A stretch of 64,000 bases of DNA from the IMG/VR virus record IMGVR_UViG_3300033067_002106, positions 1-64,000 of that record. One strand, 5' to 3'. This DNA is from a virus (Duplodnaviria > Caudoviricetes). Positions 28,255-58,875 of this stretch are shown one piece after another. Each line of letters begins with the position of its first letter. The first letter of the stretch is position 1. Under the pieces are notes generated by a model, which was not told where the DNA came from, ran no database searches, and saw only the letters and a program-made list of their open reading frames with translations. Both the position numbers and the translations under genes were made by a program.

Positions 28255-28329
28255 GAAAAAATTTGCAAAATATCGTTTGGTGTCGTATATTTGTGGTCTC
28301 TATTCGTTTTTTCAACTAAAACATTTTCT

Positions 28330-29766
28330 ATGTCAACATTATTATCTGCTTTGCAGACCAAAGACCGTTTAACTGAAAACGGAATGTCAACCAATTCTTC
28401 ATCTCTGAACAATTGTGTTAATTTATTTTTCCAAATTGGTGCTATGAGAGGTAAAGATAAGCAATTGCTTATCAATGCTTTCGTTAAAGCATATAATGAA
28501 GATGCCTTGACAGCTATAAAGTTGTTATTTTGGGCTCGTGATATCAGAGGTGGTGCCGGAGAAAGAGAAATCTTCAGGAACATAATTAGATATCTTGCAA
28601 ATACACAGCCAGACTCTTTGGCTAAGAATCTATCATTAATACCTGAATATGGTAGATGGGATGACCTATTACAATTAGCTGGTACAAGGCTTGAAAAACA
28701 AGCGTTTGAAATCATTAAGAAAGGTCTTAATGATAACCATGGATTGTGTGCTAAATGGATGCCACGCCCTAACGTTGGTAACCGAGAAAGAAAAAGACTA
28801 GCAAACTCTTTAAGGAAATTCTTAGGTCTTACACCTAAAGAATACAGAAAACTATTGGTTGAAAAATCCAATACTGTTGAACAATTAATGTGTTCTAAGA
28901 ATTGGGGCGCAATTGAGTATTCTAAATTGCCATCTAAGGCTATGTCTGATTATATGAAGGCGTTTAGCAAGAATGACTTGGCCAGATTCCAAGCGTATTT
29001 GACTTCACTTGAAAAGGGTGAAACTAAAATCAATGCCGGTGCAATATACCCATATGATGTAACCAAGAACCTTAAGCATGGTGAGGCAAGAGGTGCTGAT
29101 GCACAGTGGAATGCGTTACCAAATTATATGGTTGGTAATACCGAAAGGTTATTACCAGTGGTTGACGTATCAGGTTCTATGAGTAGCAATTCAGCTGGTG
29201 GAAGCAAGTCAGTTACATGCATGGATGTATCAATATCATTAGGCCTCTATATTTCCGAAAGAAACGAGGGTCCATTTAAGGATGCGTTTGTAACATTTTC
29301 AGATTTTCCAGAACTTCAGTATTTGAAGGGTAAGTTGAGCGAAAGATATGTGCAATTATCCTGTGCAAGCTGGTCCATGTCAACCAATCTTGAATCAGTG
29401 TTTAAACTTATTCTTAGTAAGGGTAAGAGTGAAAATGTTCCACAGGAACAAATGCCAACAATGATTTTGATTCTATCAGATATGGAGTTTAATTCAGCCA
29501 CTAGAAGTAATTGGAATCCAACAGCACAAGAAATGATAGAAAGCATGTATTTAGAAGCTGGATACAAGATGCCTAAGATTGTTTATTGGAACCTTAATTC
29601 TAGAAACCAAAATGTTCCGGTTAAGTTTGATAAGCAAGATACCGCATTGGTATCAGGGTTTAGCCCATCATTGCTTAAGAGCCTGTTGAGTGGTAAAGAC
29701 CTCACACCATTGAGCATGATGTATGAAGTTATAAATAGTGAGCGATACGCTGCTATTACAGTATAA
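28330..29766 (+). CDS. TROVE/Ro60-like helical repeat + vWA protein (DUF2828 family)
   Basis: FWARDIRGGAGERE, YGRWDDL, MIDAS VVDVSGSM, ILSDMEF, IVYWNL. Confidence 0.85.
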   Translation: MSTLLSALQTKDRLTENGMSTNSSSLNNCVNLFFQIGAMRGKDKQLLINAFVKAYNEDALTAIKLLFWARDIRGGAGEREIFRNIIRYLANTQPDSLAKNLSLIPEYGRWDDLLQLAGTRLEKQAFEIIKKGLNDNHGLCAKWMPRPNVGNRERKRLANSLRKFLGLTPKEYRKLLVEKSNTVEQLMCSKNWGAIEYSKLPSKAMSDYMKAFSKNDLARFQAYLTSLEKGETKINAGAIYPYDVTKNLKHGEARGADAQWNALPNYMVGNTERLLPVVDVSGSMSSNSAGGSKSVTCMDVSISLGLYISERNEGPFKDAFVTFSDFPELQYLKGKLSERYVQLSCASWSMSTNLESVFKLILSKGKSENVPQEQMPTMILILSDMEFNSATRSNWNPTAQEMIESMYLEAGYKMPKIVYWNLNSRNQNVPVKFDKQDTALVSGFSPSLLKSLLSGKDLTPLSMMYEVINSERYAAITV

Positions 29767-38941: not shown

Positions 38942-39625
38942 ATGAAAAGACCAAATGTTAGAAAAACAACCGAGAAGTTTATTCAAGAATGTCAAAAAAT
39001 TCACAAAAAATACGACTATTCATTAGTTGAGTACGTTACAAATAAAACTCCTGTCAAAATTATTTGTAACATACATGGTGTATTTAGCCAAATTCCATCC
39101 CATCATTTAAAAGGTTCTGGGTGTCCAAAGTGTGCCAATGACGTTAAATCAATAGAGTTCTTCATTGAGAAATCAAAATTGATTCATGGTAATTATTACG
39201 ATTATTCAAAAGTAGAATTTAAAAACACGAATAATAAAGTAATTATTGTCTGCCCCAAACACGGTGATTTTAGTCAACAACCAAAACATCATTATAATGG
39301 TGCTGGGTGCCCATATTGTAAGCAATCTAAAGGTGAAAGGGACATAATAAAATATCTTAAGGAAAACAATATAAAATTTATTTCACAAAAGAGATTTAAT
39401 GATTGTAGAGATAAAAAACCATTACCGTTTGATTTTTATCTACCAGAATTAAATATTTGTATTGAATTTGATGGTGAACAACATTTTAAAAGTAAATCAG
39501 TTTTTGGTGGTGACAAAGAATTTGAGAATAGGGTCAGACGTGATGTAATAAAAACCAATTATTGTGATAAAACTGGAATTAAATTAATAAGAATTAAAAA
39601 TAACGAAACAATTAATCTAAAATAA
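38942..39625 (+). CDS. Putative homing endonuclease (DUF723-like Zn repeats + Vsr/DUF559-like nuclease)
   Basis: Two YDYS...IICxxHG...HxxGxGCPxC repeats; FDFYLP...IEFDGEQH. Confidence 0.8.
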   Translation: MKRPNVRKTTEKFIQECQKIHKKYDYSLVEYVTNKTPVKIICNIHGVFSQIPSHHLKGSGCPKCANDVKSIEFFIEKSKLIHGNYYDYSKVEFKNTNNKVIIVCPKHGDFSQQPKHHYNGAGCPYCKQSKGERDIIKYLKENNIKFISQKRFNDCRDKKPLPFDFYLPELNICIEFDGEQHFKSKSVFGGDKEFENRVRRDVIKTNYCDKTGIKLIRIKNNETINLK

Positions 39626-40348: not shown

Positions 40349-40385
40349 AATTTGACGTTTTATCATTTTCATGATATTTATTAAT

Positions 40386-40970
40386 ATGGAAAAAGAATTA
40401 TTAAAAAAATATATTGATGAGGGTCTCTCAATAAGAAAAATTGCTGAAAAATTAAGTTGTTCAGCAACAACAATTAGGTATTATTTAAACAAATTTGATT
40501 TGGTAAGCAAATGGCATCAGCCAAATAAATTTAATGTTGAAGTAATTAGAAAATTATGTGAAGAAAAAATTAGTATTTCTGAAATTTTACGTGAATTAAA
40601 TTTACATGTTAGCAACACTAATTTTTTATCTATAAAGAGATTTGCAAAAAAAAATAATATTATATTGCCTAAAAATGGAAATAAAAGCGGAAATAAACGA
40701 TTTCCAAAAAGAACGAATAGTGAAATTTTTTGTGTAAATAGTCCCGTTAGTAGGGGGGTGGTAAGAAAACGATTATTAGAAGAAGGTCGAGGTGAAAAAT
40801 GTGAATTATGTACACAAGGTATTGAATGGAACGGAAGAAAAATATCTATGATATTAGACCATATTAATGGGGTTCCAGACGATAATAGACGTGAAAATTT
40901 AAGATTTATATGCCCAAATTGCGACTCAACATTAGACACATTTTGTGGGCGAAATAAAAGATATAAATAA
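40386..40970 (+). CDS. HNH homing endonuclease with N-terminal HTH
   Basis: CELC...LDHING...NRRENLRFICPNCDS. Confidence 0.85.
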   Translation: MEKELLKKYIDEGLSIRKIAEKLSCSATTIRYYLNKFDLVSKWHQPNKFNVEVIRKLCEEKISISEILRELNLHVSNTNFLSIKRFAKKNNIILPKNGNKSGNKRFPKRTNSEIFCVNSPVSRGVVRKRLLEEGRGEKCELCTQGIEWNGRKISMILDHINGVPDDNRRENLRFICPNCDSTLDTFCGRNKRYK

Positions 40971-41235: not shown

Positions 41236-41550
41236 ATGAAACAGAATCCCACAACCGCAATCAAATGTAAATTTTCAAATGCTGTACACAAAATGTTAGA
41301 ACCTAATACGGATATCAAACAACGTGATAGGTGGCGACACAGAGATAAGTATAAGCTCACCGACAAACAAAAGCTTGAAATGTTTGAAGAAATCTTAAAG
41401 CTTCATGCTGAATGTTCAAAAGAGTTAACAACTTATCAGTATGACAGACGAGAAAAGAAAAGAGTTCAAAAAGCACGTATTGCACGTGGTTATGTACCTA
41501 AGAAAAAGACCAAAAAAGATGATTATTTAAAGGCTGTTAAATCAGCATAA
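41236..41550 (+). CDS. Hypothetical basic protein
   Basis: 104-aa ORF followed by a GC hairpin (41551-41579). Confidence 0.6.
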   Translation: MKQNPTTAIKCKFSNAVHKMLEPNTDIKQRDRWRHRDKYKLTDKQKLEMFEEILKLHAECSKELTTYQYDRREKKRVQKARIARGYVPKKKTKKDDYLKAVKSA

Positions 41551-41632
41551 AAATGGGGGCATATGCCCCCATTTCTTTTAAGATATATTTGGTGTTTTCC
41601 GAAAAATTTCCTATGTTTGTAGTATAAAACAA

Positions 41633-43597
41633 ATGATAATGAAAAAAATCATCACATTTCTAGCAATTCTGATTGGTTTTCAGGGACTTACACAAGATAC
41701 CCTAAAGATTATAACCCTTGAAAGGGCCTTGGTAACTAGTGTTAGGGCGGATAAAAAAACCCCTATAACACAGAAAACAATCGGGGATACATCCATACAG
41801 GAAACATATCAGGGTCAGGAGATTCCGATGCTTTTAGGCTCTCAGCCATCAATAAATTCAAATAGTGATGGTGGTCATCCATTCGGTTATAGTTATTTTA
41901 GTCTTAGAGGGGCTAGTCAAAGCAGAATCAATATGACGCTTAATGGTGTACCACTTAATGAACCGGAAGACCATGGTGTATATACATCAAACTATCCAAG
42001 CTTTATTAATTCAATTCAATCGATTCAAATACAAAGAGGTGTTGGAACATCCTCTAACGGTGCTGCATCGTTTATTGGGTCTATTAATTTTCAAACAAAA
42101 AATGGTCTTAAAAAAGCGACAGATATTCAGTTGGGTGCCGGTGCTTTCAATACGCTACGGTTTAATGCTTCAACAGCATCTGGATTAAATAAAAACAACA
42201 TTGCATATGTGGTAAATATTGGTGGAATCAGAACCGATGGTTTCCGTGAAAACTCTGGAAGTGTTGGTGGTTCAGTATTTACAAGTCTTGGTTATTTTGG
42301 AAATAAAAGAATCACCAAGGTAGTATTTTTTTCTGGTCAGAGTAAAAACAAAATGGCGTGGGATGGCTCAGATGAAAGTGTTTTGAAAACAAACTTTAGG
42401 GACAATCCAAGAGGTTTGGATAATACGGATTTGTTCACCCAATCCCATATTCAATTACACAATGTAAACATGTTCAGTAAGAAATTTAAACTTACAACAA
42501 CTGTTTTTTATAATCATTTAAGGGGCCATTACGATGTTTATAGCATGAAGGATATTTCAGCCATTGGTTATTATGCCGCCGAAAAACAATCATCTAATTG
42601 GTTTGGCTATATCAATCAATTCGATTATAAATCACGTACAACCAATCTTAGCGTTGGTGTGTCATTAAACACATATAAACGGAACCACAATGGTGTTAAA
42701 TATTATGATAGCACAACAAGCTTAGAATATAGCAACCATGGAGTAAAGAATGAGGCTAGTGGGTTTGTTAAGGTAAACTTTGGTGATGATGTGGTCAGAT
42801 TTTATGCTGACCTCCAAGGCCGTTACATTGATTTTAAATATCTGGGTGATGTTCCAATGAATAAACAATCATGGTTCTTTATAAATCCAAAGATTGGTCT
42901 AAAGATATTCTTCAACAAGGATATCGATGTTTATTCCAGTTTAGCAATATCCCACAGGGAACCAACAAGGTCAGTTTTATTTGGTGGTGGATTTTATTTA
43001 ACAACATTAAATTTGATTAAACCTGAAGAGGTTATCGATTTCGAACTTGGAACAAACTATAAAACGGACAGGCTCAGACTTCAATCCAATATTTTTTACA
43101 TGGCGTTTAGGAATGAAATTATTCCAGCTGGTCCAATAGGTTCAAATAGCCTACCAACAATGATTAATGTTGATAAAAGCAAAAGATATGGACTTGAAGT
43201 TGACGCTCAATATGCTTTATCAGACAGGGTTTCATATGATGGTAATCTTACTCTTTCACGGAGCCAATTCGGGGACCAAAAAAATGAACAACTGTTTTCA
43301 CCAAGAGTAATGTTTAATCAATCTATAACGCTTGAATATCGAGAACTATCACTTGGGGTAAACCAAACTGTTTTTTCTAAATCATACATTGATATTACAA
43401 ACACAAACTCAATGGCTGGTTATTTTGTGTATGGGGTTAATGTGTCTTATGAAAAAAATAATTATAGGGTCAGCATACAAGCCAATAACATAACAGATAA
43501 AAAATATTATTCGAATGGTTATGTTGCAAATGGTGTGAGATATCTTTATCCAAATGCTCTAGCCAGCTATTATGTGACGGTTAAAATTAGGTTATGA
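41633..43597 (+). CDS. TonB-dependent outer-membrane receptor
   Basis: Signal peptide with Q+1, plug motifs FSLRG...NGVPLN and IQIQRG...GSINF, beta-barrel pattern. Confidence 0.9.
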   Translation: MIMKKIITFLAILIGFQGLTQDTLKIITLERALVTSVRADKKTPITQKTIGDTSIQETYQGQEIPMLLGSQPSINSNSDGGHPFGYSYFSLRGASQSRINMTLNGVPLNEPEDHGVYTSNYPSFINSIQSIQIQRGVGTSSNGAASFIGSINFQTKNGLKKATDIQLGAGAFNTLRFNASTASGLNKNNIAYVVNIGGIRTDGFRENSGSVGGSVFTSLGYFGNKRITKVVFFSGQSKNKMAWDGSDESVLKTNFRDNPRGLDNTDLFTQSHIQLHNVNMFSKKFKLTTTVFYNHLRGHYDVYSMKDISAIGYYAAEKQSSNWFGYINQFDYKSRTTNLSVGVSLNTYKRNHNGVKYYDSTTSLEYSNHGVKNEASGFVKVNFGDDVVRFYADLQGRYIDFKYLGDVPMNKQSWFFINPKIGLKIFFNKDIDVYSSLAISHREPTRSVLFGGGFYLTTLNLIKPEEVIDFELGTNYKTDRLRLQSNIFYMAFRNEIIPAGPIGSNSLPTMINVDKSKRYGLEVDAQYALSDRVSYDGNLTLSRSQFGDQKNEQLFSPRVMFNQSITLEYRELSLGVNQTVFSKSYIDITNTNSMAGYFVYGVNVSYEKNNYRVSIQANNITDKKYYSNGYVANGVRYLYPNALASYYVTVKIRL

Positions 43598-44136
43598 TAG
43601 AGATAATTGCAGTTGTGTTTTCTTTATTATCGGTTTATCTTACAATAAAGATGAAGGTCGTTAATTGGCCAATTGGGATAATCGGAATCATCGCATATCT
43701 TATATTATTTTGTCAACAACATCTTTATGGACAAGCTGTCCTTCAGTTAATCTTTATTATTCAATCAATTTATGGTTGGATTGTTTGGAAGAAATATAAT
43801 GAGCGTGAACTTTGTTTTATTCCGATGAACACATTTCTGAGGCATTTAATGGCTACAATTGTTTTGATTTGTGTAATGACCTTTGTTCTCGGTAAATATA
43901 CAGACAACCCACAACCAGCGTTTGATTCAATTACGACATTATTCAGTTTATTGGCAACATGGTACATGGCAAAAAAGATTATTTACAATTGGTTGGTCTG
44001 GCTGATGGCTGACATATATTTTGTTTTGATGTTTCTTGAACAAAAAATGTATTGGTCTGTTGGACTATATTTTATACTTATATTTTTAGTAATTAAAGGT
44101 TTAATAGAATGGGGAAGAAATTCAACGACGGCTTAG
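43594..44136 (+). CDS. pnuC: PnuC-family nicotinamide riboside transporter
   Basis: NWPIGI, LQ...SIYGW..W, DSITT..S..A.W..A.K, WLVW. Confidence 0.9.
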   Translation: MIEIIAVVFSLLSVYLTIKMKVVNWPIGIIGIIAYLILFCQQHLYGQAVLQLIFIIQSIYGWIVWKKYNERELCFIPMNTFLRHLMATIVLICVMTFVLGKYTDNPQPAFDSITTLFSLLATWYMAKKIIYNWLVWLMADIYFVLMFLEQKMYWSVGLYFILIFLVIKGLIEWGRNSTTA

Positions 44137-45119
44137 TTCTTGGTAAGTTCATGCCGCCACAAAATGGTCACCTGTATCTCATTGATACAGCTGCATCACA
44201 ATGCAACACACTTCATGTAATGGTATGCTCAGACGAAACCCAACCAATTCCGGGTGAGTTACGTTATAAATGGTTTCGTGAGATATATAAAAATCAACCA
44301 AACATAAGAATCATTTGGTGTCAGGACCCAAATCCACAATACCCGAATGAGTGTGAATCGGTTGATATCTTTTATAACAAATATTGGGTACCCAGCGTAT
44401 ACAAACACATCAAAAAATTGGATGTTGTATTTACATCTGAAGAATATGGCGATGAGTTTGGTAGATATTTAGGTGTACCTCACGTACAAGTTGACCAACC
44501 AAGAAGTCACTATGCAGTTTCTGGAACAGCTGTCAGAACAGACCCATATACCAATTGGAAGTATATCCCAAGACCCGTAAGGCCTTATTACACAAAAAAA
44601 GTTGTTGTAATGGGACCAGAATCGGTTGGTAAGTCAACACTGATGAAAAAGTTAGCGGTACATTATGATACGTATTATGTTGAAGAGTATGGACGAACAT
44701 ATACTGAACTTAGCGGAACACATAGTATTTCTAATCAGGACTTCATTAATATTGCCGAAGGTCAGGTTGAATTGATTGAAAAAACAATTAATAAGGGAGA
44801 AAAGGTTATATTTGTGGATACTGAGGCCATGACAACAAAAATTTTTGGTGAGATGTATCTGGGGAATGAATTCGACCCAACAAATATTAATAAAATCATC
44901 AAAAACCAAAAATTTGACCTGTATTTACTCTTGGATATTGATGTACCATGGGTTGATGATGGTACTCGTGAATTTCCACATGCAAGGGTTGAACATTTTG
45001 AGCGAATCAAGAAAGAATTGACCGATAATAACATATCTTACGTTTTGATTAGTGGGGATTATAATGAAAGATTTGAAAAAGCCGTAAAAGAAGTGGATAA
45101 ACTGGGATATTTATATTGA
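44109..45119 (+). CDS. nadR: NadR-like NMN adenylyltransferase / nicotinamide riboside kinase
   Basis: LGKFMPPQNGH, SGTAVR, GPESVGKSTL, EEYGR, WVDDGTR; no HTH. Confidence 0.9.
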   Translation: MGKKFNDGLVLGKFMPPQNGHLYLIDTAASQCNTLHVMVCSDETQPIPGELRYKWFREIYKNQPNIRIIWCQDPNPQYPNECESVDIFYNKYWVPSVYKHIKKLDVVFTSEEYGDEFGRYLGVPHVQVDQPRSHYAVSGTAVRTDPYTNWKYIPRPVRPYYTKKVVVMGPESVGKSTLMKKLAVHYDTYYVEEYGRTYTELSGTHSISNQDFINIAEGQVELIEKTINKGEKVIFVDTEAMTTKIFGEMYLGNEFDPTNINKIIKNQKFDLYLLLDIDVPWVDDGTREFPHARVEHFERIKKELTDNNISYVLISGDYNERFEKAVKEVDKLGYLY

Positions 45120-45132
45120 AACGCTAAAAGCG

Positions 45133-46296
45133 ATGAAAACGTTTATTAAAGAACAACTAAGAAGATTTATTTTAATGGAACAAAGGATTAAATATGATAT
45201 GCATATTCCTGATGATATCTTAGCAATCAAAGACGTTTTTAAAAAGAACGGCTATAAGCTATATGTTGTTGGTGGAGCGGTTCGTGATGCTATCCTAGGC
45301 AAAACACCAAAAGACTTTGACCTAGCAACCGATGCTGTTCCAGACAAGGTTGAAGAAATAATGAAAAATGCTGGATTGAAAACCCTTCCAACCGGAAAAG
45401 CTTTTGGTGTAATAAATGTTTTTACAAATAAAGGTGAATATGAGATAGCTACCTTCCGTGAGGATAGCTCTACTGGTGATGGCCGTAGACCAGACTCAGT
45501 TAGCTTTACAAACATCGAGGGTGACGTTAAACGACGAGATTTGACCATCAACGCCCTTTTCTATGATATAGATACACATGAGGTGGTTGACTTGGTTGGG
45601 GGCGTAAATGACCTTAAAAACGGTGTGGTGAGAACCGTGGGAAGTCCAGAAGAAAGGTTCAACGAAGATAAGCTTAGGATTCTTAGGGCCATCAGATTTG
45701 CTGGTCGGTTTGGTTCTGGTTTGGACCCTGCTGTGGATGCCGCATTAATGAAAGATGCTAGCCTTCAAGGAATATCTGGTGAAAGAATCAGAGATGAATT
45801 CCTTAAGGGTATCAAATCATCCAAATCAGTTGTTCAATTTTTAAGACTTATCGATAAATACAACCTGTTTGACTGGATATTTAGGGGGTTAAAGGTTAAT
45901 AAAGAATTTGTGGAAGACAAGGACCCAATCCTTGTAATAGCTAACCTATTGAAATTCAATGAATCTTCAGTACTCAACAAACAATTAAATGTTTATAAGT
46001 ATACCATTGAAGAAATACGAGCTATTACATTCTTAATCAATCTTTTAAAATTGAGTCCAGAAACAGCTGTTGCACTGAAGAGAGCCCAAAAGATTTCTGG
46101 TGTATCAGATGAACAAATTAGAAAGTTTGGCCATCAGGAAGGGTTGAATTCTAAGCTTTTAGAAGCTTTTTTGAAGTTTAGATTAACTGTAAATGGTGAA
46201 CAACTCATGCAACAGCTTAATATGAAGCCGGGAAAGGAACTTGGTGATGCAATAAATAAGGCTGAATACGATAATTTTAAAAAATTGTTGGGGTAA
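45133..46296 (+). CDS. cca: CCA tRNA nucleotidyltransferase (class II)
   Basis: YVVGGAVRD, DFD, RRDLTINAL, EDKLRILRAIRF. Confidence 0.9.
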   Translation: MKTFIKEQLRRFILMEQRIKYDMHIPDDILAIKDVFKKNGYKLYVVGGAVRDAILGKTPKDFDLATDAVPDKVEEIMKNAGLKTLPTGKAFGVINVFTNKGEYEIATFREDSSTGDGRRPDSVSFTNIEGDVKRRDLTINALFYDIDTHEVVDLVGGVNDLKNGVVRTVGSPEERFNEDKLRILRAIRFAGRFGSGLDPAVDAALMKDASLQGISGERIRDEFLKGIKSSKSVVQFLRLIDKYNLFDWIFRGLKVNKEFVEDKDPILVIANLLKFNESSVLNKQLNVYKYTIEEIRAITFLINLLKLSPETAVALKRAQKISGVSDEQIRKFGHQEGLNSKLLEAFLKFRLTVNGEQLMQQLNMKPGKELGDAINKAEYDNFKKLLG

Positions 46297-46613: not shown

Positions 46614-46687
46614 GGTTACAAAGGACATCAATTCAAAGAAATAATTATGGCGCTATTCAAAGTAGCGCCATATTTATTTAAAAAAAT

Positions 46688-55206: not shown

Positions 55207-56139
55207 ATGAAGAACTATATTAGAAAACTATTAAAAGAGAATCTGATGGTAAATGCATTGGGTATTAAGGTTTCACGTCCAAACCAAGTATTGGTTATTA
55301 TGAGGGGTATATCCGGTAGCGGTAAGTCCACAAAGGCTAAATCCATTGTGGGTGAAGGTGTTATACACTCAACAGATGCTTTGATTGAAGCAACTGGTGA
55401 TTACAATGGTTTTTTTGCTGAGATGAACAAAACAAAAAACTTCATTGGGTTAAGCCGTATGCACTCAAAGAACTTAGCCAACGCAAAGAAATCAATGAAT
55501 GAGGGTGTTTCACCTGTTGTTATTGATAACACAAATTTGAAGGCAAATGAAGCTAAGGCTTATGTTAAATATGCTTTGGAATTGGGTTATGCTGATGACA
55601 ATATCAAGATTATTGATGTTGGTACTGGTGGTTTAACAGCTGAAGGGTTGGCTGCAAGAAACCAACATGGTGTTCCATTGGAAAAAATAGAACAAATGGT
55701 TAAGTCACATAAGAGTGTCGGACCACTCACACTTAAAAGGATATTGGAGTCCAAGGATATGTATCCAAACTCTGATATCCTTTATTCAGCGGTTGTTTTG
55801 GATGAAAAATCAAGAAGCAAACTACTTGCAGCGTATGGTAAAAATATTCCTTCCGGTTGGGATGTAATTGCTCATCACATGACAATTGCTTTTGGCAAAC
55901 CAGTAAAGAATGAAGAAGACTTGGGCAAAACCGTATGTCTTAGAGTTACAAAGGTTGGCGCTAGCGATATGGCATATGCTGTTCAGGTTGAAGGATATCC
56001 ATCAAACAACGCTATTCCACATATTACCTTGGCCATCAATCCAGATGGTGGAAAAGCGATGATGTCTAACGACATAACTAATTGGATGTCAACGAAGGGT
56101 ATTGAAGTTTGTGGTGTTGTGACAAATATCAAGAAATAA
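55207..56139 (+). CDS. Polynucleotide kinase (AAA_33) fused to 2H cyclic phosphodiesterase
   Basis: RGISGSGKST, VIDNTN, RNQHGVP; HHMT and PHIT 2H motifs. Confidence 0.85.
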   Translation: MKNYIRKLLKENLMVNALGIKVSRPNQVLVIMRGISGSGKSTKAKSIVGEGVIHSTDALIEATGDYNGFFAEMNKTKNFIGLSRMHSKNLANAKKSMNEGVSPVVIDNTNLKANEAKAYVKYALELGYADDNIKIIDVGTGGLTAEGLAARNQHGVPLEKIEQMVKSHKSVGPLTLKRILESKDMYPNSDILYSAVVLDEKSRSKLLAAYGKNIPSGWDVIAHHMTIAFGKPVKNEEDLGKTVCLRVTKVGASDMAYAVQVEGYPSNNAIPHITLAINPDGGKAMMSNDITNWMSTKGIEVCGVVTNIKK

Positions 56140-57431: not shown

Positions 57432-57767
57432 ATGTTGGACCCACGAACATTTGGCGGCTCAAGAGCGGCTGAAGTTTTGGTTGAAAGATTGAAAGCTCAC
57501 GACTCAAAAATGATTAATAAGGTTGGTCATATTTGGGTTTCTTATAGTCAAACTTTTAACGAAATAAAAAAGTTAGACAGCAGGATTTCAATCGGGTTAG
57601 CCAAATTGGTATATCATAATGCAATAGGAAAGGCTGATACCTTTCCTGATGATATTAAAACTTATTTTAAAAACATAATCAGTGCTCGTTATAGGGTTTT
57701 TCTAATTGAAAGGGACGCACACAAACCTTATAAACATAGGGCGGATTATCCGGCAAAACAAAAATAA
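57432..57767 (+). CDS. Hypothetical protein
   Basis: 111-aa ORF. Confidence 0.55.
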   Translation: MLDPRTFGGSRAAEVLVERLKAHDSKMINKVGHIWVSYSQTFNEIKKLDSRISIGLAKLVYHNAIGKADTFPDDIKTYFKNIISARYRVFLIERDAHKPYKHRADYPAKQK

Positions 57768-57768
57768 C

Positions 57769-58875
57769 ATGTTAGCAATAATCAGATACATAAAGACACA
57801 TGGCCTAGCTAAGGCTATTGAAACTTTCAAACTCAAGACTAGAGTCTATGAGAAGAAAATTCTATTGAACTATGACCAAATAGAATCCAATATGTCCTTC
57901 GAGGAAGTTCAAGACTGTCGTGGTCTTATTCTTGAAAGAGATACATGGAAGGTTATGTCCATGTCATTCAGAAAGTTCTTCAACCATGGTGAAGGAAATG
58001 CTGCAACAATTGATTGGAATACCGCACGTGTACTTGAAAAGGTAGACGGAACGATGATTCAACTTTATTGGGATTGGCATAAGAACGAATGGTTTGCGGC
58101 AACAACTGGTATGGCTGAGGCAGAGGGAGAGGTCAATAATATCGAGAAAACTACTTTTAGTTTATTGTTTTGGAACACAGTTAAACTAGACAAAAATAAG
58201 TTGGATAAAGATTTAACCTATGTCTTCGAGCTATGCACACCAGAAAATATTGTTGTAACACCACACACTGAATATAAGGCTATTTTATTAGCGGTTAGAA
58301 ATAAAATTTCACTAAAGGAAATGTCATATTCAGAACTTGAATCCGTTAGTCAAGTATTGTCAATTCCATTGGTCAAGTCAATCGAGATGACATTTACTTC
58401 TGTTGAGGATATAAAGAAGACATTTGAAAATATGCCATTTAGCGAAGAAGGTTATATCATTATTGATGCTAATTTTAATCGTATCAAGATTAAGAATCCA
58501 GCATATGTTGCCGCACATATATTAAAAGGAAAGTCTGGATTTCATCACATCATGGATATTATTAAAACAAATGAAGTTGAGGAATATGTCGCAACATTTC
58601 CAAACAGAAAGGATGAAATCTTGAAACTTAAAGTAAATTACGACAACTTAATAAATCGGTTAACCAATTTGTGGAGTATACTGATAAAAGAAACACCTAA
58701 GAATGATGGTAAAACACAAAAAGGTTACGCTGAATCAGTATTTAAACTTACAAGTGAGCATGGGCTAAAATGTTTTTCGGGTTTGTTCTTTAATTTGGCA
58801 AACGATAAAGTATCAAACATTGATGAGTTTGTCTCTAACTTTGATAATAAGATTCTATATGAACTACTTCGGTAG
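57769..58875 (+). CDS. T4 Rnl1-like RNA ligase
   Basis: DCRGL, FRKFFN, EKVDGT (motif I), FELCTP, EGYII, KIKN. Confidence 0.85.
   Translation: MLAIIRYIKTHGLAKAIETFKLKTRVYEKKILLNYDQIESNMSFEEVQDCRGLILERDTWKVMSMSFRKFFNHGEGNAATIDWNTARVLEKVDGTMIQLYWDWHKNEWFAATTGMAEAEGEVNNIEKTTFSLLFWNTVKLDKNKLDKDLTYVFELCTPENIVVTPHTEYKAILLAVRNKISLKEMSYSELESVSQVLSIPLVKSIEMTFTSVEDIKKTFENMPFSEEGYIIIDANFNRIKIKNPAYVAAHILKGKSGFHHIMDIIKTNEVEEYVATFPNRKDEILKLKVNYDNLINRLTNLWSILIKETPKNDGKTQKGYAESVFKLTSEHGLKCFSGLFFNLANDKVSNIDEFVSNFDNKILYELLR

Follow-up and report, generated by a model that had tools for sequence, protein, structure and literature searches.

A host-derived receptor, PnuC and NadR operon in a jumbo phage, probably serving NAD+ salvage

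The first 64 kb of the 82,835-bp IMG/VR viral contig IMGVR_UViG_3300033067_002106, referred to throughout as the window, carry three overlapping genes between positions 41633 and 45119, encoding a TonB-dependent outer-membrane receptor, a PnuC-family inner-membrane facilitator and a NadR that lacks a helix-turn-helix (HTH) domain. From inspection of the sequence, these genes had been proposed to form a complete import route to nicotinamide adenine dinucleotide (NAD+). We consider it probable that they are a host-derived NAD+ salvage operon of a jumbo phage, in which receptor, PnuC and NadR would import a precursor and turn it into NAD+ in a Bacteroidota host. The operon and its leader comprise the following elements, where NMNAT denotes the nicotinamide mononucleotide adenylyltransferase domain.

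41551..41574, plus strand: intrinsic terminator hairpin, a ten-pair GC-rich stem followed by UUUCUUUU
41584-41591 and 41612-41619, plus strand: putative Bacteroidota-type -7 promoter motifs, TATATTTG and TATGTTTG respectively, from reading the sequence
41633..43597, plus strand: TonB-dependent outer-membrane receptor, 654 residues (Pfam Plug, 2.5e-10; TonB_dep_Rec_b-barrel, 1.1e-25)
43594..44136, plus strand: PnuC-family inner-membrane facilitator, 180 residues (PF04973, 5.8e-42 over the full model)
44109..45119, plus strand: HTH-less NadR, 336 residues (NF005988, 218 bits against a cutoff of 201; NMNAT and AAA_28 kinase domains)

All three open reading frames (ORFs) of the original prediction are present and intact on the plus strand, and they do overlap, receptor and PnuC by 4 nt (ATGA, 43594-43597) and PnuC and NadR by 28 nt (44109-44136); the genes are translationally coupled. 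The 82-nt spacer upstream of the receptor is filled by the terminator and the promoter motifs. The hairpin folds at -17.7 kcal/mol (z -3.4) with a U tract behind it, and none of 200 shuffles folds equally well; it ends the upstream gene at 41236-41550 and insulates the operon from upstream transcription. A single TAnnTTTG promoter had been described here, and there are in fact two copies, at 41584 and 41612, the second stopping 14 nt ahead of the receptor ATG. The overall count of this motif was rejected as promoter evidence, the 109 copies observed over the whole window against 98±9 expected being chance level; position alone is informative, 17 of the 64 plus-strand copies ending 1 to 45 nt before a gene start against 3.5 expected (p 4e-8). 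We infer from the sequence that the copies ahead of the receptor are its promoter.

Receptor, carrier and enzyme

Read by eye, the receptor has a hydrophobic N-terminus, a putative signal peptide, and a TonB-box-like segment, LERALVTSVR, of a conserved LxxxLVTSVR type in which L29 is nearly invariant and R38 invariant. An AlphaFold2 model built on a 31-sequence alignment shows a barrel of about 22 strands, with a predicted template-modelling score (pTM) of 0.75 and a per-residue confidence (pLDDT) of 80-90 in the barrel. With this model Foldseek returns the full-length transporters PqqU, FyuA, FoxA and FhuA at TM scores of 0.75-0.80, and, at the level of a predicted structure, the TonB-dependent transporter fold is confirmed. 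The top Foldseek match is the cofactor importer PqqU, identity being only 13-17%, and a search of PDB sequences gave distant siderophore receptors only; such fold and sequence matches were rejected as a clue to the substrate, being to generic transporters at 13-17% identity. No TonB gene is encoded in the complete relatives of this phage (described below), and hence it is the host TonB that would have to drive the receptor.

The carrier scores 76 bits on the NCBIfam PnuC model TIGR01528, against a cutoff of 42, and has the motif WxxWxxxD, a form of the WxxWxxxD/N motif described for the thiamine carrier PnuT (PMC5749112), with D as in PnuT. Both the NCBIfam equivalog and the motif were tried as discriminators between nicotinamide riboside (NR) and thiamine and were rejected, as both fail at loci of known context; the PnuC tree is poorly resolved between context groups.

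For NadR, Pfam finds no HTH and the NF005988 match begins at model position 65, the protein aligning with residues 65-404 of the 411-position model. The protein is enzyme-only, unlike the trifunctional enterobacterial NadR with its N-terminal HTH. It aligns end to end with 8x7f, 1lw7 and 9x6f, the last being the phage enzyme Bas30_86 (E 1.4e-44). The N-terminal NMNAT domain carries QNGH and SGTAVR and the C-terminal kinase domain carries GPESVGKS, EEYGR, DTEAMTT and DDGTR. All the full-length NadRs in our set have E.GR, DT...TT and DG[TL]R, as do the E. coli, H. influenzae and phage Bas30 NadRs of known structure, and the kinase domain of the window NadR, as far as motifs can tell, has the canonical NR-kinase signature.

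The original prediction cautioned that the first NMNAT motif is QNGH rather than HxGH, and the window does read GKFMPPQNGH. HxGH is kept in the other phage NadRs and in all the chromosomal ones. This deviation from the nucleotidyltransferase signature (H/T)xGH is the main argument for a partial route, in which the glutamine inactivates NMNAT, NadR takes NR only as far as nicotinamide mononucleotide (NMN), and a host NMN adenylyltransferase or deamidase route completes NAD+. Bacterial kinase-only homologs do exist, so a kinase alone can be useful beside a Pnu carrier. Against such a loss, however, the NMNAT domain is better conserved than the kinase domain (78% and 65% identity, respectively, to the NadR of viral locus L002), and the ratio of nonsynonymous to synonymous rates (dN/dS) in it is about 0.1, indicating purifying selection, with dS saturated. 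Moreover, the glutamine recurs in the window, in L002/L009 and in L006, three lineages sharing 57-71% identity, and the second signature, SGTAVR, is intact. Finally, Bas30_86, the experimentally validated enzyme of the NARP3 pathway (PDB 9X6F, 9X6H), reads TRGH where the window reads QNGH, in a comparison of the two proteins by whole motifs; since a validated enzyme has threonine there, the first residue of (H/T)xGH is tolerant to change. Because the QNGH domain is conserved, its dN/dS is near 0.1 and Bas30_86 reads TRGH, NMNAT activity is plausible on sequence grounds, and we regard the partial route as unlikely. The caution was fair, but it weighs less than was feared.

Kinship with the thiamine receptors

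In Bacteroidota, thiamine is taken up by a system comprising the receptor OMthi (BT2390), the carrier PnuT (BT2396) and Tnr3, under thiamine pyrophosphate (TPP) riboswitches (PMC5613172; the PnuT mechanism is described in PMC5749112). The window operon resembles it in architecture, both combining a TonB-dependent receptor with a Pnu-family facilitator and a kinase for trapping, frequently within a single operon, and the receptors and carriers of the two systems are homologous. The obvious rival, then, is that the operon imports vitamin B1 and not a pyridine precursor, with an OMthi-type receptor and a PnuC-like gene that is really a PnuT. The window receptor and the TPP-riboswitch-controlled receptors do belong to one family, with 30-34% identity; neither the PnuC hidden Markov models nor the WxxWxxxD/N motif, with the window's D as in PnuT, tells against a thiamine carrier; and bacterial locus L038 has a close homolog of the PnuC family within an operon under TPP control.

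Regulation and phylogeny point elsewhere. A single-sequence search of viral contigs had found no match to the receptor, but an alignment of receptor homologs as query recovered 17 viral loci and 43 loci in bacterial genomes. With Rfam, 27 of the 43 bacterial loci proved to have a TPP riboswitch immediately ahead of the receptor, while RF00059 had no match in the window and none at any viral locus. A custom covariance model was then made from 20 receptor-linked riboswitches and run on 77 sources; it detected seven further riboswitch loci below the Rfam gathering threshold, some with long insertions, and, in a survey of 401 Bacteroidota genomes that added 26 thiamine-type loci, a riboswitch at every one of them. 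A TPP riboswitch is thus present at every thiamine-type locus with upstream sequence, and the custom model found none in the window, at any viral locus or at any NadR-linked chromosomal locus. Cryomorphaceae riboswitches with long insertions (L042:5492-5603, L043:1949-2081, L050:563-695, L051:4426-4567 and L052:5510-5648) lie below the Rfam gathering score and reach 38-54 bits with a model made from neighbouring matches.

Two maximum-likelihood receptor trees, one quick and one careful with bootstraps, agree. All the TPP-riboswitch receptors fall in one clade with 100/100 support, which we equate with OMthi by context. The window receptor lies in a separate phage-only clade (100/100) that includes a 634 kb phage, and a third group, also 100/100, joins chromosomal NadR-linked receptors (Saprospira, three survey genomes and a Bacteroidales metagenome-assembled genome, or MAG) with those of a 735 kb phage, Lak and one further viral contig. 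There is no riboswitch receptor among the NadR-linked ones and no NadR-linked receptor inside the riboswitch clade. As the tree is unrooted, it does not say which receptor type is ancestral. A phylogeny of the receptor against the thiamine receptors was among the checks that the original prediction had named, and it places the receptor in the same family, outside the 100/100 riboswitch clade.

The split is visible in individual residues as well. NadR-linked and riboswitch-linked receptors are told apart by twelve alignment columns, six in the plug (E63, G85, E110, P111, E112 and Y117 in the window) and six in the barrel, the latter including H352 versus N and N368 versus D. Most riboswitch-type receptors also have an extra N-terminal CarboxypepD_reg domain, which the window receptor does not. 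The kinases differ too. Where the OMthi system has a thiamine pyrophosphokinase, the window has a full NadR (RNK plus NMNAT) whose strongly conserved NMNAT domain has no role in thiamine metabolism, and Pfam finds no thiamine pyrophosphokinase near the operon. Its NR-kinase signature is moreover not that of the thiamine loci, for the stand-alone kinases beside riboswitch receptors read EYAR, DT.L.V[IL] and DP[QL]RE instead, in 17 of 17 cases. In view of the missing riboswitch, the receptor's place outside the thiamine clade and the nature of the third gene, we judge thiamine uptake to be very unlikely.

These stand-alone kinases deserve a comment of their own. Many Cytophagia and Flavobacteriia have, next to a TPP-riboswitch-controlled TonB receptor, a PnuC-family gene together with a stand-alone AAA_28 kinase of about 170 residues (L023:4743-8079, L028:4443-7992, L038:1326-4823, L054:3741-7346 and about 12 further bacterial loci), and at L038 the PnuC-like gene is inside the riboswitch-controlled operon. 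They may represent an undescribed kinase for thiamine or a thiamine precursor that traps the PnuT substrate.

Occurrence in phages and on bacterial chromosomes

The order receptor, PnuC, full-length NadR is kept at 15 of the 17 viral loci, and deposited huge phages of 634, 642 and 735 kb have the identical three-gene arrangement. Departures from it include L005, which has the receptor without PnuC or NadR, and Lak-A1, which has the receptor and a NadR-like gene 5 kb downstream, with no PnuC detected by tblastn. In the receptor tree, a very long branch leads to the Lak receptor (L065 and L066, from Prevotella phages Lak-A1 and Lak-B2), which clusters with NadR-linked receptors from chromosomes.

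The same three-gene operon sits on chromosomes of Bacteroidota, namely those of Saprospira, three survey genomes and one Bacteroidales MAG. In the three survey genomes, receptor, PnuC and NadR are tightly packed on contigs of 0.78-4.9 Mb, and L021 shows the identical overlapping layout among ordinary bacterial neighbours. In Saprospira the order is receptor, an unknown 331-residue gene, PnuC and NadR, adjoining an EPSP-synthase-family gene; the 331-residue gene (L024:2328-3323, L057:8181-9176) is conserved and has no Pfam match, and its product could be an accessory periplasmic or surface component. The operon occurs in 4 of the 401 sampled Bacteroidota genomes, and it is a rare operon of bacteria that phages took up, apparently more than once. 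Because it sits on Bacteroidota chromosomes, the phage module is host-derived. Hence, of the earlier suggestion that the phage had redirected a receptor of the vitamin family, the kinship and the separation hold in the trees, but the redirecting was not done by the phage. One further locus, L019, comes from a binned Deltaproteobacteria MAG (JAJFLM010000305.1); its receptor, PnuC and NadR nest in the phage-only clade near a 362 kb phage, the adjacent 690-residue ORF has no Pfam match, and the sequence is probably a misbinned phage contig.

The distribution also bears on the notion that the receptor remodels the cell surface, by superinfection exclusion, receptor masking or as a decoy, and is merely co-located with a NARP3-like pair. 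Blocking of receptors by outer-membrane proteins of phages is known, for example from lambda Lom, and is also raised in a preprint on huge phages (bioRxiv 10.64898/2026.10.24.761521), and TonB-dependent receptors commonly serve as phage receptors; the receptor of L005 without PnuC or NadR, and that of Lak without a detected PnuC, fit such a role. It does not account, however, for stop and start codons that overlap, for a gene order kept across phage lineages of 360-735 kb, or for a receptor that retains plug, TonB-box-like segment and barrel. Moreover, the same operon occurs on bacterial chromosomes, where superinfection exclusion explains nothing. Surface remodelling is in our estimate very unlikely.

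The contig itself is a piece of a jumbo phage of about 360 kb. CheckV puts the completeness of the IMG/VR contig at 23%, implying a genome of about 360 kb. All the large genes of the window are on the plus strand, and they include a Hoc-like decoration protein, SbcCD, a RuvC-like resolvase, primase, exonuclease and a phage sigma factor, together with RtcB, an Rnl1-like RNA ligase, a polynucleotide-kinase-like ATPase and an ATP-dependent DNA ligase, as well as 21 tRNAs and a transfer-messenger RNA (tmRNA). Two complete genomes with direct terminal repeats (362.5 and 360.5 kb) encode homologs of a 900-residue window ORF. The CheckV estimate, the phage genes and this shared ORF are the grounds for calling the contig a jumbo-phage fragment. 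A search of the complete relatives for Terminase_6C did not find it; their phage nature follows from the terminal repeats, the CheckV estimates and the phage genes held in common. Three complete relatives carry a NAPRTase/NAMPT-family gene (G001:C1:354843-355553, G002:C1:82858-83556 and G003:C1:210946-211629), and therefore these phages may run a second, nicotinamide-based NAD+ route beside uptake.

Two features downstream of the operon belong to the same stretch.

45133..46296, plus strand: CCA-adding tRNA nucleotidyltransferase, 13 nt downstream of NadR (PolyA_pol head domain, 6.3e-40)
46646..46672, plus strand: first strong plus-strand terminator downstream, a twelve-pair stem with 5 GC pairs and a T-rich tail

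No convincing terminator was found between 41633 and 46646, and the one at 46646-46672 is likely to be the end of the transcription unit. As this is the next convincing plus-strand terminator, the CCA-adding gene is probably co-transcribed with the operon; functionally it lies outside the module, and in the relatives it is syntenic at a variable distance. It is one of an RNA-repair set of RtcB, CCA-adding enzyme, polynucleotide-kinase-like ATPase and Rnl1-like RNA ligase (28291-29766, 45133-46296, 55207-56139 and 57706-58875) scattered among the 21 tRNA genes and the tmRNA, and the NAD operon sits inside a translation and RNA-repair region. Just upstream of the operon, the ORFs at 38942-39625 and 40371-40970 have endonuclease-type (PvuRts1I-like, HNH) and HTH domains and, lying among tRNA genes, look like mobile nuclease genes.

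The proposed route to NAD+

The core of the route is already known from phages. In the NARP3 pathway (Sci Adv 2026, PMC13464706), PnuC and an HTH-less NadR import NR, rebuild NAD+ and defeat Sir2-HerA, as was shown experimentally; its parts in phage Bas30/TrudiRoth are the PnuC-like transporter Bas30_87 and the HTH-less NadR Bas30_86 (PMC13464706). The window likewise has an adjacent phage PnuC-family carrier and HTH-less NadR with NMNAT and RNK domains, and the kinase motifs are common to both. In contrast to NARP3, the window operon begins with a TonB-dependent receptor, and the NARP3 paper names neither TonB nor the outer membrane; the first NMNAT motif is QNGH in the window and TRGH in Bas30_86; and whereas NARP3 belongs to Enterobacteriaceae, the window phage is a jumbo phage with a Bacteroidota host, and the function of its operon is a predicted one. 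The import-to-NAD+ route originally predicted is supported by the phylogeny, while its PnuC-NadR core, known as a phage pathway through NARP3, has ceased to be a hypothesis. From the thiamine system, the window operon is set apart by the absence of a TPP riboswitch, a receptor outside the riboswitch clade and the kinase. A third comparison is the NAD uptake of Haemophilus influenzae by the porin OmpP2, periplasmic NadN and e(P4), PnuC and NadR (PMC4081464 and established knowledge). There too a passage across the outer membrane, import of NR by PnuC and conversion to NAD+ by NadR follow one another, and the window NadR aligns with 1lw7; but where Haemophilus uses a porin and periplasmic nucleotidases, the window has a TonB-dependent receptor and no nucleotidase beside the operon.

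Pieces of the picture have been seen in huge phages. The October 2026 preprint (bioRxiv 10.64898/2026.10.24.761521) catalogues beta-barrel outer-membrane proteins of huge phages, among them 22-stranded TonB-dependent receptors, with transcribed ones in Lak phages; it lists nicotinamide mononucleotide transport genes among receptor neighbours and draws no pathway. Of the 174 NAD-jumbo phages in a 2024 study (PMC11662467), many of which infect Bacteroidota, 68 have pnuC, and the portion available reports no receptor. In what is accessible of these two sources, receptor, PnuC and NadR are not joined as a pathway, and the thiamine kinship and the chromosomal operon are absent. A literature search for a TonB-dependent receptor for NAD precursors found no paper. 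New here are the receptor as the conserved first gene, its kinship, as a sister type lacking riboswitches, with the thiamine receptors, and the matching operon on chromosomes.

The salvage route that we consider probable would run as follows. The jumbo phage would express the operon during infection, and the host Sec and BAM machineries would export the receptor, which, energised by host TonB, would capture a scarce pyridine precursor at the cell surface and pass it to the periplasm; the precursor is most likely NR, possibly NMN or NAD+. PnuC would then carry NR across the inner membrane by facilitated diffusion, and NadR would trap it by phosphorylation to NMN and adenylylate NMN to NAD+. The expected outcome is that NAD+ is raised or restored in the infected cell, and the purpose might be to counter NAD+-depleting defences, as the two-gene NARP3 does, or to supply a long jumbo-phage infection.

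Several considerations weigh against this route. The substrate specificity of PnuC cannot be read from its sequence: a TPP-controlled homolog also passes the TIGR01528 cutoff, and the D/N ligand position of WxxWxxxD/N varies within every context group. No member of the receptor clade is biochemically characterised. The plug of the receptor model is poorly modelled (pLDDT below 50), and because of this low confidence no binding site was deduced from it. Midpoint rooting of the otherwise unrooted tree puts the phage clade on the thiamine-clade side. In NadR, glutamine stands for the first His/Thr of (H/T)xGH, and NMNAT activity is to that extent a prediction. NR is small enough for porins, the need for a TonB-dependent gate being argued by analogy with thiamine, and the expression and outer-membrane insertion of the window receptor during infection are themselves a proposal.

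A more specific version can be offered tentatively, with confidence a little short of even. The NadR-linked receptors would be the first TonB-dependent NAD-precursor transporters, derived from one stock with the thiamine receptors by a specificity switch centred on the plug (E110-P111-E112 versus D-M-I) and installed by giant Bacteroidota phages as a high-affinity gate, so that a NARP3-type pathway would have access to NR at nanomolar external levels once host NADase defences had drained the NAD+ pool.

Whichever version is correct, uptake-based NAD+ reconstitution has been shown, as NARP3, only in Enterobacteriaceae phages, where the crossing of the outer membrane by the precursor was never asked about; the window operon suggests that a Bacteroidota phage supplies that step as well. 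If true, this would be a rare case of a virus giving its host an energised outer-membrane importer, and it predicts that TonB-dependent transporters have a new class of substrate, the nucleoside of vitamin B3, in addition to B1 and B12. Each part of the NR system has its homolog in the thiamine system, and the two differ at a dozen receptor columns and in the kinase signature; the determinants of specificity are therefore testable by residue swaps. For phage ecology, the finding is that several huge-phage lineages, of 360-735 kb, keep the module as a stable component.

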